Origin: a virus
Taxonomy: Duplodnaviria > Caudoviricetes
Length of the DNA: 64,000 bases
Direction: 5' to 3' (one strand)
Virus record (IMG/VR): IMGVR_UViG_3300037484_000235
Coordinates: 128,001-192,000 of that record
The position numbers were made by a program, and so were the translations under genes. Positions 136 through 34,913 of the stretch are shown piece by piece. Numbering within the stretch: position 1 is the stretch's first letter; each line of letters opens with the position of its first letter. The notes beneath the pieces are model-generated. The model made no database searches and was not told the origin of the DNA. It saw nothing but the letters and a program-made list of their open reading frames with translations.

Positions 136-1461
136 ATGATGTCTACAGAGAAAAAGCCGCCAGCATCTACCAAGAAGTCCAAGATCGTTCCCGCCAAGAA
201 TCTCAGTGCCCTTACAAGGGCCCGAGCGGCTCTCAAGGTGGTGTTGAAGGAGGACCATGTCACTCCGCTGTCAGACAACATCTTCAAGACCTCGATGCCT
301 CACATCCCTACGGGGTCACTTATCATTGACTATTTGATTGGTGGGCGCCCAAATCAGTTTGGGGTTGCACCGTGTCCTGGGACACCTAGAGGCCGTATCC
401 TCAACCTCTATGGGAATCCGGGTGCTGGAAAGACAACTCTTGCACTCACGACCGCAGCTTCGATCTGCAACGTGGGGGGCACGTGCGTGTATATTGACTG
501 GGAAAATGAGGTGGAGCCGAGATATGCTGCGGCCCTCGGAGTTCCGGTGCAGGACGAGTCGCGATTCCTCCTCATGCAGCCCAACACGATGGAAGAGGGC
601 ATGAAGATCATGGTCCAGATGGCGAGTGAGGGTGTGGACCTCATTGTCGTAGACTCTGTCGGAGCAGGTGTACCCGAAGACCTTTACAACCGTGCCGTGG
701 ATGATGAGGGCAAGGTTACCCGAATCGGTCTGGTGGCAGCGAAGTGGAGCCAGTTCCTCCCCAAGTTCAAGTCCCTAGCGGCTAAGTCCAATACAGCTGT
801 CATTGGTATCTCCCAGCTTCGTAAGACCATCGACAAGTCTGGACACGGTCCGGACTCCGCTGCTCAGGGTGGGGAAGCGTGGAAGTACTACTCCGCCGTT
901 CGAATGATGCTTCGCGTCTACTCGAAGGATAAGGTCAAGCAGTTCAATGCCATTACTGGCAAGCCGGAAGACATTGTGGTGGGCACAACTGTTGTCGCCA
1001 AGCTGGACAAGTGCAAGGTGAGTGACAGCGTTCACCACGAGCAGAAGTTCTACCTCAAGAGCGGTAAGGGGATTGACAACAACCGATCCGTCGTAGACCT
1101 GGCCGTGACCTACAAGATCATCACCAAGAGTGGGTCTTGGTATGAGTGGCCAGCAGCTCCGGGAGGTTCGATCCGTGGACAGGGTATGGACGGGGTGATC
1201 AAGTTGATTTCTGAGAGAAAGGGTGCACTACAGACTCTCTTCTCCCAGGTCATCCCCAAGCTTACGTCTACGCCTACGGCAGAACAGCTTGCCTCCCTCG
1301 AAGAGGAAGAGGTGTCTGATGACATCTTTGAGGGAATCGTGCCGGCTACAAAGGCCCAGACGGAAAAGACAGGCGATGCCTCTCTGGATGAAGCGGAAGA
1401 TGAAGATCTTCCGGCTGCGTTCCGAACGGAACTGGAGCCAGAGTCCGAAGAGAACGACTGA
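136..1461 (+). CDS. recA: RecA/UvsX-family recombinase with acidic C-terminal tail
   Basis: Walker A GNPGAGKTT, IDWENEVEPRYAAALGV, Walker B LIVVDSVGA, ISQLR and GGEAWKYYSAVRM all match RecA core motifs. Confidence 0.95.
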   Translation: MMSTEKKPPASTKKSKIVPAKNLSALTRARAALKVVLKEDHVTPLSDNIFKTSMPHIPTGSLIIDYLIGGRPNQFGVAPCPGTPRGRILNLYGNPGAGKTTLALTTAASICNVGGTCVYIDWENEVEPRYAAALGVPVQDESRFLLMQPNTMEEGMKIMVQMASEGVDLIVVDSVGAGVPEDLYNRAVDDEGKVTRIGLVAAKWSQFLPKFKSLAAKSNTAVIGISQLRKTIDKSGHGPDSAAQGGEAWKYYSAVRMMLRVYSKDKVKQFNAITGKPEDIVVGTTVVAKLDKCKVSDSVHHEQKFYLKSGKGIDNNRSVVDLAVTYKIITKSGSWYEWPAAPGGSIRGQGMDGVIKLISERKGALQTLFSQVIPKLTSTPTAEQLASLEEEEVSDDIFEGIVPATKAQTEKTGDASLDEAEDEDLPAAFRTELEPESEEND

Positions 1462-1473
1462 AAGGGCTCCCGC

Positions 1474-1504
1474 ACCCCCTGCAAAAGAGGGTGCGAATTG
1501 GAAC
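1474..1504 (+). repeat. Copy 1 of a 31-bp intergenic hairpin-like repeat (ACCCCCT-N7-RGGGTGYGAATTGGAAC)
   Basis: 24/31 identical to 29689-29719; core CCCCTGCAAAAGAGGGTG is 16/18 identical to 34921-34938. Confidence 0.7.
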
Positions 1505-1508
1505 AAAC

Positions 1509-2735
1509 ATGCCTTTCAGCATCCGGGTCCGTGATTTTCAGAGCATCGAGGACGCTACTATTGAAGTGGCTGGCCTCACCGTTGTCACTGGCCAGAACAA
1601 CGGAGGCAAGACGGCCCTAATCCGTTCTGTCTTCGGAGCCTTCACTAACGCTCGTGGAACCAAGTTCGTTCGTCACGGAAAGGACAGCACCCAAGTGGGG
1701 CTGTCCTTTTCGGACGGGCGGTCCCTCCTTTGGGAGAAGGGGGAGAAGGTCAACCGATATGAGCTTGACGGGAAGAAACTCAATCGAGTCGGACAGGGTG
1801 TGCCACCTGAGATTGAGACTCTGGGTGTAACCGCTGTTGAGGCGGCTGGAGTCGAACTGTGGCCGCAGTTTGCCCATCAGTTTGTTGGGCAGGTCTTTCT
1901 TCTCGACAAGCCCGGTTCCCTCCTTGCTGAGGCCGTGGCCAATGTGGACAAGGTGGGGGTGTTGAATGAAAGTCTTCGGCTTGCGACTTCTGATCGGAGA
2001 TCCGCAGCCTCCGAACTCAAGGTTAGACTTGAGGATGTAGGGAAGATCGAGGATTCACTTCTTCGGTTCGGGGGCCTGGATGAGGCGGTATCCCATGTCC
2101 GGAAGGTTGGCGTGATTCAAACGCAAACAGTTGAGGATCAAAAATCTCTAGACCTGGTCCTAGAGGTAAGAACTCGATGGGTTTCGCTCACGGGGGCGAG
2201 GAAGGCTCTCCTCCCGGTGCGCACGCTCCCCACAGTGGATGAAGCTCTTGTAGGACGGGTCGGAAAGATGCAGAAGGCCATTGAGTGGGCTGTTCCGATC
2301 TCGATTCGGGTAAAGAGAGTCCTGGTGGAGAGAGAGCGGGCTGCGCTTGCGGCCAAGGCAGCGAGGTCTGTGGTCCTTCCGGACCCACAGCCCATTGCAG
2401 AAGCCCACCAGTGCCTGGGGATGACCCAAGCACTCTCTTCTAGGGTCCAACGAGCCAAGAAGGAACGGGACCAGGCGTCTGGTGCGGCCACGGCTGCCAA
2501 GGGAATGGTCCTCCCTGACCCACAGCCGGTCCGGGACGCCCTCCAGAGATTGGAGGCAGCCAAGGCCATGTCTAGAAAGCTGGCAGCCCTACGAGGCACG
2601 GTGGACGACTTGCGGGCCACCCTTGCCAAGACCCAGGCCGCACACTCCGATTCCGCGGTATGGGTAGAGTCTCTCTTCAACGAGGCCGGTCAATGTCCCT
2701 TCTGTGGAGCTGCGCATGAAACAAGCTGTAGTTAG
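1509..2735 (+). CDS. Rad50/SbcC-like ABC-ATPase, N-terminal half (Walker A, coiled coil, Zn hook)
   Basis: IRVRDFQSI start, Walker A TGQNNGGKT, long Ala/Arg-rich coiled coil, ends in CPFCG; no signature or Walker B motif. ATG 1509 preferred over the track start. Confidence 0.85.
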   Translation: MPFSIRVRDFQSIEDATIEVAGLTVVTGQNNGGKTALIRSVFGAFTNARGTKFVRHGKDSTQVGLSFSDGRSLLWEKGEKVNRYELDGKKLNRVGQGVPPEIETLGVTAVEAAGVELWPQFAHQFVGQVFLLDKPGSLLAEAVANVDKVGVLNESLRLATSDRRSAASELKVRLEDVGKIEDSLLRFGGLDEAVSHVRKVGVIQTQTVEDQKSLDLVLEVRTRWVSLTGARKALLPVRTLPTVDEALVGRVGKMQKAIEWAVPISIRVKRVLVERERAALAAKAARSVVLPDPQPIAEAHQCLGMTQALSSRVQRAKKERDQASGAATAAKGMVLPDPQPVRDALQRLEAAKAMSRKLAALRGTVDDLRATLAKTQAAHSDSAVWVESLFNEAGQCPFCGAAHETSCS

Positions 2736-2964: not shown

Positions 2965-3567
2965 ATGACTGACCTCAACAAGATAGCTCAGACTTTCTCC
3001 GCTCACATGTGCTCGAAGTTTGGAGCCACGGTCCACCACAAGGAAGACGCCACCGAGATGAAAGCCATCGCTTGGGGGATGGACCTTGGACGTTGGGCGG
3101 GAATCGGCGGGCTCGCATCGAGTTCCGACTTCATGACCCACTACACGACGACGATCGGCACGGCGATCTACATGCCGGAGTCACATCGGAGTCGGCCCCT
3201 CACGTTCATTGAGGTCTTGACCCACGAGTGCCAGCACGTCTTGCAGTTCAAGGAGTCGGGGATCAAGTTCGCGTGGCTCTACCTTAAGGAGCCAGAGGCC
3301 CGGGTCAAGTACGAAGTGGATGCCTATGCAGCGGGGGCCGCGATTCAACAGTGGTTCACTGGAACTCTTGATGGGTCCGATCGAATCGTGTCTCTGCTGG
3401 TGGCTGGGTACCATCTTCGTCAAGAGGATGCGGACCTTGCAGCGGACATGCTCAAGTCACACTTGGTGTCCCTCAAGAATGGGATTGTGATGGCTGGGTC
3501 CGCCCGTGAGGCAATCGCCTTTTTCAAGGAAAACTATCCAGAGCTGTATGGGACTGTTCGCCAGTAA
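2965..3567 (+). CDS. Putative zinc metallopeptidase (HExxH)
   Basis: LTHECQHVLQ and a downstream YEVDAYA Glu ligand motif. Confidence 0.6.
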   Translation: MTDLNKIAQTFSAHMCSKFGATVHHKEDATEMKAIAWGMDLGRWAGIGGLASSSDFMTHYTTTIGTAIYMPESHRSRPLTFIEVLTHECQHVLQFKESGIKFAWLYLKEPEARVKYEVDAYAAGAAIQQWFTGTLDGSDRIVSLLVAGYHLRQEDADLAADMLKSHLVSLKNGIVMAGSAREAIAFFKENYPELYGTVRQ

Positions 3568-3583
3568 GGCGTAACAACTCACC

Positions 3584-5683
3584 ATGACTGACTCTCCTTG
3601 GGTGCTGCATCACGAAGACTGTCTGGTAGCAATGGCATCTATGGAGTCTGATTCCATGGATGCCATCGTTTGTGATCCTCCGTATGAATTATCGAACGAC
3701 GGCAAGGCAAGCCCCTACAGGGTCTTTGCGGAATTCATGTTCCCACAGGATGCGAAGATCAATCCCATGCTTGGAAGCGAGGACGAGCTTCCTTTCCTCG
3801 TAAATGAGGTTCTTCAATTGCGTGGTATTGGCGTTGTCCCAACTCCAGCGACCCCCGTGCCAGTAAGTTCCGTGACACTCGATGACGAGGCGTCTCACGG
3901 GGACGAGGATATCAAAAACGCATGTGAATGTGCCATTCCCTCGACGAATACTGACTTGAGTGAGAAGGTCGAATCCGAGAGTGCGAAGTACTTGGGCTGC
4001 TTTGCTTTCGAACTTGCTGACTTTGGATCCCTCTGTCAAACGCTTGATTGCGTCGGCGCGGGCTTTATCTCTGGCGGTCTCGGGATAGGGTTTCGGATTA
4101 GCCCTGCGAGTGCACCAAGCCTTCTTGGATGCTGCGATGCGATCTACAATAGCGACCATGGCGTAGGGGGCCGAGACGATGCGCTTACGCAACTTGTAGG
4201 CATGCTCTCGCGAGCAGAACATGTCCCCGTGACGAGACTTCACTTGACACGGGGATCGTTGGAATGTTTTGCCACAGACAGCGCACTGGTATTCCTTGCT
4301 GTTTTCCTTCTCAGTGGCGCGAAGTTGGTACGAGCAGATGCGGCTGCAAGTCGTTTGCCTTCCATGCTTGAGACGCGTCGGATCCGCGTTGTAGATGCGA
4401 TGACAAACAGGGCACTCACGTTCGACTTGGTCCTTCATCCAACAACCATAACATCATTCGGATTTATGGGCAAGGAGTGGGATGGCCAGAAGGTGGCTTT
4501 CAATGTGGACCTGTGGAAAGAGGCTCTGCGTGTCGCAAAGCCTGGTGCCTATCTCCTCGCGTTTGGCGGGACACGAATGGTTCATCGTCTTGCATGTGCG
4601 ATTGAAGACGCAGGCTGGGAGATTCGTGACACAATCGCGTACATGTACGGTGTTGGATTTCCAAAGAGTCTTGACGTAAGCAAGGCGATCGATAGAGAAT
4701 TGGGGGTCCCCCAAGAAGTGTCCGGCAAGGGTCAAGCAGTTGACCGTATTGCGTTGGACTACGGTGGCGCAACAGGTAAAGCAAAGAATGGACTCAAGTC
4801 TGAGTTTTCCACGAGCAGCGAGTGCAATACGGATGCAGCCAGTCAATGGGTTGGTTGGGGCACTGCGCTCAAGCCAGCCCACGAGCCGATCATCTTGGCG
4901 CGTAAGCCTCTGATCGGCACGGTCGCCGCGAACGTGCTTGCACACGGCACAGGTGGGATCAACATCGACGGGTGTAGGATCGCTGGGTCTGTTCCAAGTG
5001 TGACTGGGCAGGGGTTTAAGACTGGCAAGTACGGTGGACAGATTGGACGTGGTGATCCTACACTTACTGGGCAAGCGTGGGAAGGTAATAAGGATGGGCG
5101 TTGGCCCGCGAATGTGGTTCTTGGCTGCGCGTGCGAAACGCCGCACGAGCCTGACTGCGCAGTGGCACTGCTAGACGCGCAGACTGGCACTCTTGGGAGT
5201 TCTTACCGACCAGATAGGGCCCCCCTAAAGTCCATGGGATTTTACGGTGGAAATGGGGAAGCTGTTAGGGATGGATTTGATGACGTAGGAGGAGCTTCCC
5301 GATTCTTCTACTGCGCCAAAGCCTCGCGCTCGGAGCGCACGCACGGCGGACAGGTAGTCAATCTACACCCCACCGTCAAACCCATCTCACTCATGAGGTG
5401 GCTCTGCCGATTGGTGACCCCTCCCGGAGGAACCGTCCTTGATCCCTTCACGGGCTCTGGCTCCACTGGAGTAGCTGCTATCCTCGAAGGATTCCTCTTC
5501 GTCGGCTGTGAGAAGGAATCGGAGTCCGTCGAGACATCCAGGTCACGACTTGAAATGGCTACCCTCGTCGCAACCGGTGGTGTCAAGAACCCCTGGGAGG
5601 ATGATCCACGGGAGCCTACTACCGTGAAAGATACTCTGCCCATTTCCTCGATTGAAGACCTGTTTGGCTTCGGGGATGCGTAA
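3584..5683 (+). CDS. Beta-class amino (probably N6-adenine) DNA methyltransferase with a 256-codon in-frame insertion
   Basis: DAIVCDPPYEL...GFMGKEWD...LRVAKPGAYLLAFGGTRMVHRL...HPTVKP...VLDPFTGSGSTG; motif IV before motif I gives the beta order. Confidence 0.9.
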   Translation: MTDSPWVLHHEDCLVAMASMESDSMDAIVCDPPYELSNDGKASPYRVFAEFMFPQDAKINPMLGSEDELPFLVNEVLQLRGIGVVPTPATPVPVSSVTLDDEASHGDEDIKNACECAIPSTNTDLSEKVESESAKYLGCFAFELADFGSLCQTLDCVGAGFISGGLGIGFRISPASAPSLLGCCDAIYNSDHGVGGRDDALTQLVGMLSRAEHVPVTRLHLTRGSLECFATDSALVFLAVFLLSGAKLVRADAAASRLPSMLETRRIRVVDAMTNRALTFDLVLHPTTITSFGFMGKEWDGQKVAFNVDLWKEALRVAKPGAYLLAFGGTRMVHRLACAIEDAGWEIRDTIAYMYGVGFPKSLDVSKAIDRELGVPQEVSGKGQAVDRIALDYGGATGKAKNGLKSEFSTSSECNTDAASQWVGWGTALKPAHEPIILARKPLIGTVAANVLAHGTGGINIDGCRIAGSVPSVTGQGFKTGKYGGQIGRGDPTLTGQAWEGNKDGRWPANVVLGCACETPHEPDCAVALLDAQTGTLGSSYRPDRAPLKSMGFYGGNGEAVRDGFDDVGGASRFFYCAKASRSERTHGGQVVNLHPTVKPISLMRWLCRLVTPPGGTVLDPFTGSGSTGVAAILEGFLFVGCEKESESVETSRSRLEMATLVATGGVKNPWEDDPREPTTVKDTLPISSIEDLFGFGDA
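3689..4438 (-). CDS. Zn-ribbon plus Vsr/DUF559-like PD-(D/E)XK homing-type endonuclease, nested antisense inside the methyltransferase
   Basis: CPVC..CSRIC and CAVC..FCSREH repeats, then SKFESKAAQVL...FDILV...LVIECHGTYWHG...LRILWEHE; protein-like composition, unlike the + strand reading of the same DNA. Confidence 0.9.
   Translation of the reverse strand: MKDQVERECPVCHRIYNADPTRLKHGRQTTCSRICSYQLRATEKENSKEYQCAVCGKTFQRSPCQVKSRHGDMFCSREHAYKLRKRIVSAPYAMVAIVDRIAASKKAWCTRRANPKPYPETARDKARADAIKRLTEGSKVSKFESKAAQVLRTLGFDLLTQVSIRRGNGTFTCVFDILVPVRRLVIECHGTYWHGGRWSWDNANTTQLKNLIYEERKLVLASKHGIDLRILWEHEFRKDPVGACLAVVR
3692..4459 (-). mobile_element. 768-bp frame-preserving antisense endonuclease insertion element
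   Basis: Removing 3692-4459 restores the contiguous methyltransferase motif DPPYEL-GFMGKEWD; the element is the endonuclease ORF plus 21 nt. Confidence 0.8.
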
Positions 5684-7140: not shown

Positions 7141-7773
7141 TTGATCGAAGATCGATTGAGACTTTTGACCGAGGAAACTTCACGGATCCTCGGTCGTAGG
7201 GATGCTGCACAAGATAGTCTGAAAGCTGCTCGTGTGGCTTCTCAGGCGTTGACAGATCGTGTGGAGCTTCTTGACCTCGTGGCGATCCTGATCCGATCCC
7301 TCATTGACATGGAGATTACCGAGGGGGTAAAAGCCATCGAGACTCTTCAGACTGAGGGATTGCGCGCTGTTTTTGACGACCAAGAGATCAGCGTCCGTGC
7401 TGAGGTAGAGATTCTTCGAGGGAAGGTGAGTGTCTCTCTAGTCACTCTTCAGAAGAAAGAGAATGGGGACATGATCGAGGGTGGGAGCCTTGAAGGATTC
7501 GGTGGGGCTGTCTCCACAGTTCAATCGGTTCTTCTTCGACTGGCTCTTATCATACGGCGTGGGTTACGCCCGGTACTGTTTCTAGACGAGAGTTTACCGG
7601 CCTTTGACGAGCGGTACGTTCTGAACATGGCTTCGTTCCTGAAGACCTTGTGTGCTCGGATGGGTGTGGATATCCTCCTCGTGACACATAACCCTGTTCT
7701 GGTGGAGGCAGCGGATCGTGCCTACCGAATTCGTCGAGAACACGGACATTCCTCTTTCCACAAGATCCGGTAA
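7141..7773 (+). CDS. Rad50/SbcC-like ABC-ATPase, C-terminal half
   Basis: Coiled coil, signature-like FGGAVSTV, Walker B and D-loop FLDESLPAFD, H-switch LLVTH; no Walker A; TTG start. Confidence 0.85.
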   Translation: MIEDRLRLLTEETSRILGRRDAAQDSLKAARVASQALTDRVELLDLVAILIRSLIDMEITEGVKAIETLQTEGLRAVFDDQEISVRAEVEILRGKVSVSLVTLQKKENGDMIEGGSLEGFGGAVSTVQSVLLRLALIIRRGLRPVLFLDESLPAFDERYVLNMASFLKTLCARMGVDILLVTHNPVLVEAADRAYRIRREHGHSSFHKIR

Positions 7774-34034: not shown

Positions 34035-34913
34035 ATGACCACCACAGTCAACAACGCCGTCAAGCAGAAGATCATCAGCGACTACCTCAAGACAGCTTCG
34101 GGCCGTAACAAGCTCGCAGCGTCGATGACGCAGCCGCTCCGCACTCGCCGCGACTACATGAGCGTCGGTCGCAAGACCTTCCTCGTGGAGCAGCTCCCCG
34201 ATGGTGCGCTTCCGATCTACGACAAGGACCCGGACGTCACCGCGTTCGTGGTCGGCGAGGAAGGCGAGAACATCCTCGCCATCACCAAGCCACGCCGTGT
34301 GATCTTCCCGCTGTTCGAGATCGCATCGAACCCGGAAATCCCACTCACGCAGATCAAGGAGCGTCGCTTCGATCTGATCGAACGCGCCCAGGATCTTGCG
34401 CGTGCGCAGATTCAGGCAGCAGAAGACGAGCGTGTCTTCGCAGTGCTTGACGCAATCGCAGTCAACGGATTCGACTCGCTTCCCGGCGGGACGAACGCTG
34501 ACATCCCGGTCATCGCACCGATCACCGGCGCGGTACTCGCAGACGCCTTCTCGCTCATCGAGCGCCACGACCTTCGGGTTGCTCGCGTTTACATGAACGC
34601 GCGGGACTACGCGGATATCCGCAAGTTCGGTCGGGACATCCTGGACATCGAGTCCCAGGCCACCCTGCTCAAGACCGGACTTCAGGCCACCCTCTGGGGC
34701 GCCCAGGTCATCACGAGCCGTCTCGTCCCCGTCGGCACCGTGTACGTGTGCTGCGAGCCCGAGATGTTTGGACGCATTCCCGTACGTACGGAACTCACGG
34801 TCCTGTCTGCCGACGACCCGAAGGCCCGCACGATTGGATTTTCGGTCTTCGAAAATTTGGGCATCGGCGCATACAACCCACGTGGGTTGGTCCGACTCAC
34901 GATCACTCGCTGA
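34035..34913 (+). CDS. Major capsid protein (probably HK97 fold)
   Basis: 292 aa after protease, scaffold and decoration; strongest codon bias in the window; followed by a terminator; IQAAEDERVF and LWGAQVITS patterns. Confidence 0.85.
   Translation: MTTTVNNAVKQKIISDYLKTASGRNKLAASMTQPLRTRRDYMSVGRKTFLVEQLPDGALPIYDKDPDVTAFVVGEEGENILAITKPRRVIFPLFEIASNPEIPLTQIKERRFDLIERAQDLARAQIQAAEDERVFAVLDAIAVNGFDSLPGGTNADIPVIAPITGAVLADAFSLIERHDLRVARVYMNARDYADIRKFGRDILDIESQATLLKTGLQATLWGAQVITSRLVPVGTVYVCCEPEMFGRIPVRTELTVLSADDPKARTIGFSVFENLGIGAYNPRGLVRLTITR

Follow-up and report, generated by a model that had tools for sequence, protein, structure and literature searches.

A patchy and unexplained in-frame insertion has been described in the DNA methyltransferases (methylases) of mycobacteriophages (Gosselin et al., 2023; PMC9957025), and the ShiLan insertion was found to hide an HNH endonuclease that is encoded on the same strand in a shifted frame, with no intron or intein found; read-through, a looped-out passenger and leaderless translation were proposed (Arsenault et al., 2025; PMC11855218). 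In addition, antisense endonucleases of the LAGLIDADG and Vsr-like types have been reported inside inteins in a preprint on actinophage inteins (bioRxiv 10.1101/2025.01.02.630785), which cites Gorbalenya 1998 for antisense LAGLIDADG genes in inteins. A third related system is I-Bth0305I (Taylor et al., 2011; PMC3239194), a group I intron endonuclease with a C-terminal Vsr-like fold, whose family is tied to phage genes and to homing. Here we describe an insert in a beta-class methylase gene that carries a complete antisense gene for a Vsr-like nuclease directly after the catalytic motif IV. The gene lies in a 64,000-nucleotide stretch of DNA (hereafter the window), which comprises positions 128,001 to 192,000 of the Caudoviricetes record IMGVR_UViG_3300037484_000235; this record is 252,521 bases long at a CheckV completeness of 57%, and thus represents part of a jumbo-phage genome.

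The insert resembles ShiLan in several respects: the host is a phage methylase of the PF01555 type, the host frame has no stop, a complete homing-type endonuclease occupies another frame, signatures of introns and inteins are absent, and the insert is patchily distributed and more conserved than its host gene. The two differ in that ShiLan, which is known from about ten mycobacteriophages, encodes an HNH enzyme in a shifted frame of the host strand and at another site, whereas the present element, which is carried by hundreds of environmental phage contigs, encodes a Vsr-like enzyme on the opposite strand in codon alignment, directly after motif IV. For the present element, moreover, statistics demonstrate a purge of the stop-complement codons. 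The text of PMC11855218 contains none of the words “antisense”, “Vsr” and “DPPY”. The antisense endonucleases of inteins likewise face a host frame on the other strand in which no stop can be allowed, and one type is Vsr-like, with an HHpred match to 3R3P; however, they sit in splicing domains that excise the passenger, for which the present element has neither the domain nor the room, and they reside in DNA polymerase, minor capsid protein, terminase and thymidylate synthase. The nuclease also shares the C-terminal Vsr-like fold and the Asp/His/His residues of I-Bth0305I, whereas I-Bth0305I has NUMOD and helix-turn-helix N-terminal modules and belongs to a group I intron, and the present protein has two Zn ribbons and belongs to neither an intron nor an intein. 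An initial annotation of this locus had proposed an “undescribed class” of selfish element, which was overstated, since ShiLan and the antisense intein endonucleases had already been published; what is new in the searchable literature is the combination of an antisense gene, no splicing domain, a Vsr-like nuclease and the motif IV site, together with its scale.

Our preferred reading, to which we assign a probability of roughly 0.8, is that the insert is an active homing cassette, in which an antisense gene has been purged of codons that would stop the methylase frame and through which the methylase is translated. The nuclease would target the conserved coding sequence of motif IV (DPPY-x-L/G-F-M-G-K, with the slash at the junction) in beta-class phage methylases and would cleave the empty site. 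The cassette, being antisense, codon-aligned and 3n nucleotides long, would be subject to selection that purges TTA, CTA and TCA, and the methylase mRNA would thereby stay free of stops. One polypeptide would then be made, still active as a methylase, with a passenger of about 256 residues without selected sequence in the loop after the catalytic DPPY, and neither an intron nor an intein would be involved. The nuclease itself would be expressed as a leaderless mRNA from a promoter with its -10 element in the 21-nucleotide spacer of the insert and its -35 element provided by host Gly-Lys codons.

The stop-free methylase frame across homologous loci

The nuclease gene contains 17 Leu and 14 Ser codons, and TTA, CTA and TCA are all absent from it, in agreement with the codon counts of the initial annotation, which had also observed that the TAA stop of the nuclease is the complement of a host TTA codon. 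These three codons account for 1.67% of the codons in 43 window genes, so that 249 codons would leave the frame open by chance in this single window with a probability of about 0.015, or of 0.037 once the Leu and Ser content is taken into account. A capsid-like window gene of 292 codons (34035-34913) is also devoid of TTA, CTA and TCA and has an open aligned antisense frame; the antisense of this gene holds a meaningless 187-residue open reading frame (ORF), which provides an in-window example of the chance level. From the window alone, the open frame is not convincingly beyond chance, and its significance comes only from a comparative census.

Searches that are seeded on the passenger find open frames only and are hence biased. 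One such search with the methylase-frame passenger found 29 long methylases whose frame runs on across a homologous insert, and an exhaustive phmmer search gave 44 clusters at 50% identity, with the passenger at residues ~35-290 in almost all and with proteins of 480-880 residues. The census was therefore seeded on the nuclease protein, using an alignment of 31 homologues, so that it was blind to the methylase frame. DNA loci were taken from metagenome contigs (the best 80 of 318 relatives) and from viral contigs (the best 80 of 129); an earlier search with a two-sequence alignment had recovered only the known viral contig and nothing in genome contigs, and the 31-sequence alignment was needed. 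The resulting set comprises 88 distinct full-length nuclease genes with 32-65% identity, and the nuclease ORF is intact in all 88.

The stop-complement codons are absent in 75 of these 88 loci, where 4.8 would be expected from local codon usage. In about 67 loci the gene occupies the same methylase site in antisense, and the aligned frame runs on into a long ORF, with DPPYxL at the complement of the nuclease stop codon and with GFMGK 7-25 codons past the His codon (CAT) complementary to the nuclease ATG. Not one of the 17,269 nuclease codons in these 67 in-frame loci is TTA, CTA or TCA, compared with 511 of 25,931 codons (1.97%) in the methylase outside the insert. The remaining two antisense frames stay open for just 5-100 codons, and the same three codons, which are common at low GC, are lacking from the low-GC copies (GC 0.34-0.44) as well. 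Another 13 homologous loci have broken frames with 1-21 TTA, CTA or TCA codons each, and the nuclease family is therefore not intrinsically unable to use those codons. The census is decisive in placing the stop-free frame beyond chance. It might still be supposed that the frame is open by chance and that the methylase is a pseudogene split by a free-standing endonuclease gene, given a single-window probability of about 0.02-0.04, a second antisense-open gene in the window and the 13 broken loci; against the 75 stop-free loci, low-GC copies included, this explanation is scarcely credible, and it is refuted unless the census is biased.

The pattern of divergence distinguishes which of the two frames is under selection. 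Among 23 close copies, divergence at the first, second and third positions of the nuclease codons is 0.39, 0.27 and 0.55, and amino-acid identity is 55% in the nuclease frame versus 37% in the methylase frame. Because the “first” positions of the methylase frame are the most variable, this frame is not selected as a protein; the behaviour of a selected protein is seen in the nuclease frame alone, and the passenger is selected merely for its lack of stops. The final nine nuclease codons, which lie beside DPPYEL, have a third-position entropy of 0.82 bit versus about 1.35, which hints at an extra constraint on them from the methylase side or from the DNA. The selfish element that keeps its antisense frame open, as envisaged initially, is thus strongly supported by the census, by the codon-position comparison and by the signatures of homing described below, and the depletion of TTA, CTA and TCA that had been suggested as a check holds for most homologues, with stops in the aligned methylase frame confined to the 13 broken loci.

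Insert anatomy, nuclease and host methylase

The insert separates the Leu and Gly of the DPPYEL/GFMGK sequence (Table 1), and only 21 nucleotides of it (4439-4459) lie outside the minus-strand ORF. The empty site is preserved in gp100 of mycobacteriophage Buck, which reads DPPYEL/GFMGKKWD, with the DNA sequence TAC GAA CTG/GGA TTC ATG, and position 4460 of the window is exactly where its DNA similarity to mycobacteriophage methylases sets in. Similarly, 103 of the 119 methylases nearest to the C-terminal part of the window protein (45-61% identity) have DPPY-x-L-x-FMGK with nothing between. These comparisons bear out the in-frame insertion after DPPY and the reconstruction of the empty site that had been made from the sequence, and the ORF list and the sequence equally confirm the complete Zn-ribbon endonuclease of 249 residues with 21 extra nucleotides. 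In the greedy ORF map, the nuclease ORF is the only one chosen on the minus strand before 39 kb, as had been noted. In seven uninserted relatives (P0076, P0079, P0091, P0138, P0162, P0164 and P0169), 28-34 residues naturally separate DPPYxL from FMGK (e.g. DPPYHLTTGKKG...). Because some uninserted relatives carry about 30 natural residues there, the insertion position appears to be a naturally variable and permissive loop.

Table 1. Positions in the window of the methylase gene, the insert and their associated elements
Feature	Positions	Strand	Basis or remark
Host beta-class N6/N4 DNA methyltransferase ORF, 699 residues, spanning the insert	3584..5683	+	ORF list; Pfam PF01555 N6_N4_Mtase, E 7e-24
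Hairpin with 16-bp stem, in the methylase N-terminal coding region	3632..3666		Terminator scan; 23 nucleotides past the nuclease stop on the minus strand
Motif IV codons, D-P-P-Y-E-L	3674..3691	+	Sequence
Homing endonuclease gene, 249 residues, complete; two N-terminal Zn ribbons and a C-terminal Vsr-like (EDxHD-type) domain	3689..4438	-	Pfam, AlphaFold2, Foldseek
Insert, 768 nucleotides = 256 methylase-frame codons, between Leu and Gly of DPPYEL/GFMGK	3692..4459		Absent from the nearest methylase relatives
Putative extended -10, TG-n-TATGGT	4445..4453	-	6 nucleotides upstream of the nuclease ATG (4438)
Right-hand co-conversion tract, methylase sequence	4460..4521	+	Groundwater-metagenome contig comparison
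Putative -35, TTGCCC	4468..4473	-	17 nucleotides upstream of the -10; antisense of the host Met-Gly-Lys codons of FMGK

The boundaries bear on whether the insert could be removed from the RNA or from the protein. A self-splicing RNA of group I, group II or another kind might be considered, as homing endonucleases are commonly borne by introns and antisense genes for them are reported from some nuclear group I introns (PMC9548176). Nevertheless, an Rfam search of 3300-4900 on both strands, with E-values up to 10, gave no match, and the boundaries show neither the exon-terminal U and intron-terminal G nor GUGYG...AY, with only 21 nucleotides outside the ORF. The boundary can slide by 1-3 nucleotides (a shared ATT), by which E-F-G-F replaces E-L-G-F, and intron-like ends never arise. 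In addition, splicing would abolish selection for a stop-free frame, yet 75 of the 88 loci are stop-free. RNA removal is disfavoured because splicing makes such a frame needless, and we regard it as highly improbable.

A non-canonical intein with an antisense endonuclease, as in some actinophage inteins, would be spliced out of the protein instead. Its appeal is that antisense LAGLIDADG and Vsr-like endonucleases do occur inside inteins (bioRxiv 10.1101/2025.01.02.630785), that the first passenger residue is usually Ser and that an open frame is what an intein requires. The nuclease ORF, however, takes up 750 of the 768 nucleotides and leaves no space for splicing blocks, the passenger ends in SF, ST or SS instead of HN, the next residue is Gly and not Cys, Ser or Thr, and the methylase frame is without selection at the protein level. 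A Pfam search with the methylase-frame passenger matched no family and no Hint or intein domain at E <=1. An intein is therefore very unlikely. The Rfam, Pfam and boundary results agree with the initial annotation, which had found no intein junction and no room for a group I or II intron. That annotation had left two fates for the passenger, of which translation is supported and removal by an unrecognised RNA mechanism is not.

The nuclease has two CxxC...CxxxC motifs, assigned to the Zn ribbons, ahead of its nuclease domain. Pfam gave weak matches to Vsr (E 0.002) and to MTES_1575, and the sequence similarity to Vsr is weak (E ~1e-3). An AlphaFold2 (AF2) model, with a pLDDT (predicted local distance difference test) score of 84.6, was matched by Foldseek to Vsr (1cw0/1vsr, E 1e-4) and to the catalytic domain of I-Bth0305I (3r3p, E 3e-3, template modelling score 0.66 by target). 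In a hidden Markov model profile alignment, D176, H189 and H194 of the nuclease fall on D51, H64 and H69 of Vsr; across the 31 homologues D176, E187 and H194 are invariant and H189 is nearly so, a comparison that covers part of the five-residue EDxHD register. In its predicted fold and in its putative catalytic Asp and His residues, the protein conforms to the EDxHD or Vsr-like homing endonucleases.

The host ORF has the Pfam family, the motif order and the fold of a beta-class N6/N4 methyltransferase. Its DPPY (motif IV) is near the N terminus and its FTGSGSTG (FxGSG, motif I) near the C terminus, and the best PDB matches of its AF2 model are CcrM (6pbd), M1.HpyAVI, M.BceJIV and M.RsrI, with M.PvuII also matched. 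In the alignment of the 29 inserted methylases, DPPY and the following L are invariant, as are F275/M276 and W280/D281, and the H and K of HPTVKP are nearly so. The stop TAA of the nuclease is read from the strand opposite to the Leu codon TTA at 3689-3691; homologous loci have TTA or CTA for this Leu, or else TCA as the codon that follows. Two other window genes, at 1491-2735 and 7141-7773, resemble the N- and C-terminal halves of a Rad50/SbcC-type ATPase, and the methylase lies within the gap of ~4.4 kb between them.

Mobility of the cassette

Comparison of closely related copies revealed nuclease genes that are far more alike than the methylases that carry them. In the pair L025/L028 the nuclease genes are 99.1% identical, and identity in the methylase past the junction falls from 95% in the first 60 nucleotides to 80% in the next 300 and to 49% beyond. 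Likewise, for L106/L070 the nuclease genes are 97.9% identical and successive methylase segments 93%, 78% and 55%; for L014/L011 the values are 96.9%, then 87% and 77%; and the pairs of L012, L087 and L088 have nuclease genes at 88-91% and methylase segments at 92-93%, 66-72% and ~55%. A groundwater-metagenome contig (run X4), which covers 3677-4692, differs from the window by ~3% in the insert and at no position in 4460-4521; from 4522 on it has dense differences at third codon positions, and to the left of 3677 it is unlike the window. Near-identical nucleases in diverged methylases with decaying flanks are, at the level of sequence comparison, what recent homing with co-conversion of short tracts would be expected to leave, and they indicate active homing. 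The flank gradients are also indirect evidence that the nuclease would cut the insert-less allele site-specifically.

These pair comparisons are stronger evidence of mobility than the count of changes on a tree. In a tree of the methylase C-terminal part (27 inserted and 116 empty), the window methylase is the sister of an empty allele, and 12 changes of insert state were counted, at least 4 of them on well-supported branches, a count that is indicative only, as the inserted and empty sets were sampled differently.

Nuclease expression, contrary evidence and related loci

A composite promoter (Table 1) came from the comparison of junction-to-start spacers across loci. Among 64 in-frame loci, 25 have a -10-like hexamer, often with a TG extension, exactly 6-7 nucleotides before the start codon, and about 23 others have TATAAT 21-45 nucleotides upstream, followed by a GGAG-type ribosome-binding site. 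About 15 loci have TTGCCC as the -35 partner, at a spacer of 16-17 nucleotides, and distant subfamilies in which TATAAT is perfect are among them. A search for RNA runs on the region or on the nuclease gene gave none. The nuclease probably has a promoter of its own on the strand opposite to the methylase, and the -10 spacing of 6-7 nucleotides would correspond to the geometry of a leaderless mRNA in the subfamily of the window. The hairpin in the N-terminal coding region of the methylase is a possible end of the antisense transcript.

Several observations weigh against a homing cassette that is translated within an active methylase. The promoter match in the window (TTGCCC/TATGGT) is weak, with 8 of 12 positions, and lies below the threshold of the generic scan; a generic sigma-70 scan of 3400-5000 gave no minus-strand site at threshold. 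The census loci are phylogenetically related, so that summed probabilities overstate their independence. An insert of 256 residues placed two residues past the catalytic DPPY might inactivate the enzyme, and the AF2 model of the inserted methylase, with a mean pLDDT of 57 and a patchy confidence of 28-86 in the passenger, cannot show a tolerated loop. The moderately confident segments of the passenger were not taken as a fold, as covariation in the alignment may stem from the nuclease frame. In addition, 7-8 homologues (among L047, L048, L051, L100, L058, L060, L079 and L039) lie between methylase pieces and out of frame, and their antisense frame is still open for 260-320 codons, which is not explained by the read-through of an intact methylase.

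The loci between methylase pieces argue for the view that the stop-free frame serves the transit of ribosomes, which would prevent polarity on downstream genes or provide translational coupling, with a methylase that may be inactive. The overlap of the antisense ORF ATG with the stop of the preceding methylase piece in L100 (1788-4037) points the same way, as does the window itself, where same-strand replication genes lie downstream of the methylase. In contrast, the 29 inserted methylases and the ~67 in-frame loci have DPPY, with motifs of the FMGK type on the flanks of the insert, and the invariant and near-invariant residues listed above fit a selected enzyme; ribosome transit would also leave the exact in-frame junction at a catalytic motif unexplained. 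We consider this alternative unlikely, and prefer the translation of an active methylase through the passenger.

Homing endonucleases are thought to need an intron or an intein to spare the genes that they invade. In this family, strong comparative statistics show that a nuclease gene can instead adapt its codons so that the other strand remains translatable. The insertion of a passenger that is read through may thus be a third route, of general use alongside introns and inteins, by which such enzymes reside inside genes. One methylase family would then host read-through insertions in both orientations, with several nuclease families and sometimes twice per gene. It is conceivable that the antisense Vsr-like lineage tied its expression to correct insertion, through a promoter put together from the -10 of the insert and the -35 of the host, and we hold this notion, jointly with that of a general third way, only tentatively, at somewhat less than even odds. 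Hundreds of environmental phage copies of the element occupy the catalytic motif of a methylase, and they have done so for a long time, as nuclease identities are as low as 32%. The element is a clean natural example of how selection can act on a property of a coding sequence that is itself non-coding, namely the lack of three codons. It also carries a warning for annotation, as gene callers give either one long “methylase” without the nuclease or the nuclease without the methylase. Moreover, the loop after DPPYxL may tolerate large insertions, with a possible use in methyltransferase engineering, and the inserted methylases may serve as a simple experimental system for how much passenger sequence an enzyme can carry.

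Some related loci have further insertions. Two methylases that bear the antisense Vsr-like gene have a second large insertion, L006 at 1155-1580 (-) and L085 at 1473-1991 (-), which holds an HNH ORF on the same strand and out of frame, the arrangement of ShiLan; the second site is before HPTVKP in L006 and after TALKPA in L085. Two hidden nucleases, one in each orientation, can therefore share a single gene. In L001 (1616-2643), a second Vsr-like gene (233 residues, on the methylase strand) splits the methylase just before HPTVKP, and the C-terminal S-adenosylmethionine-binding piece is a separate ORF of 109 residues (1616-1945). In L002 (2537-6806), the gene of a 317-residue Vsr-like endonuclease lies between two ORFs of DNA polymerase III alpha, the ends of which resemble split-intein halves. 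This layout is like that of the “fractured gene” endonucleases that Dassa and colleagues reportedly described in 2009.

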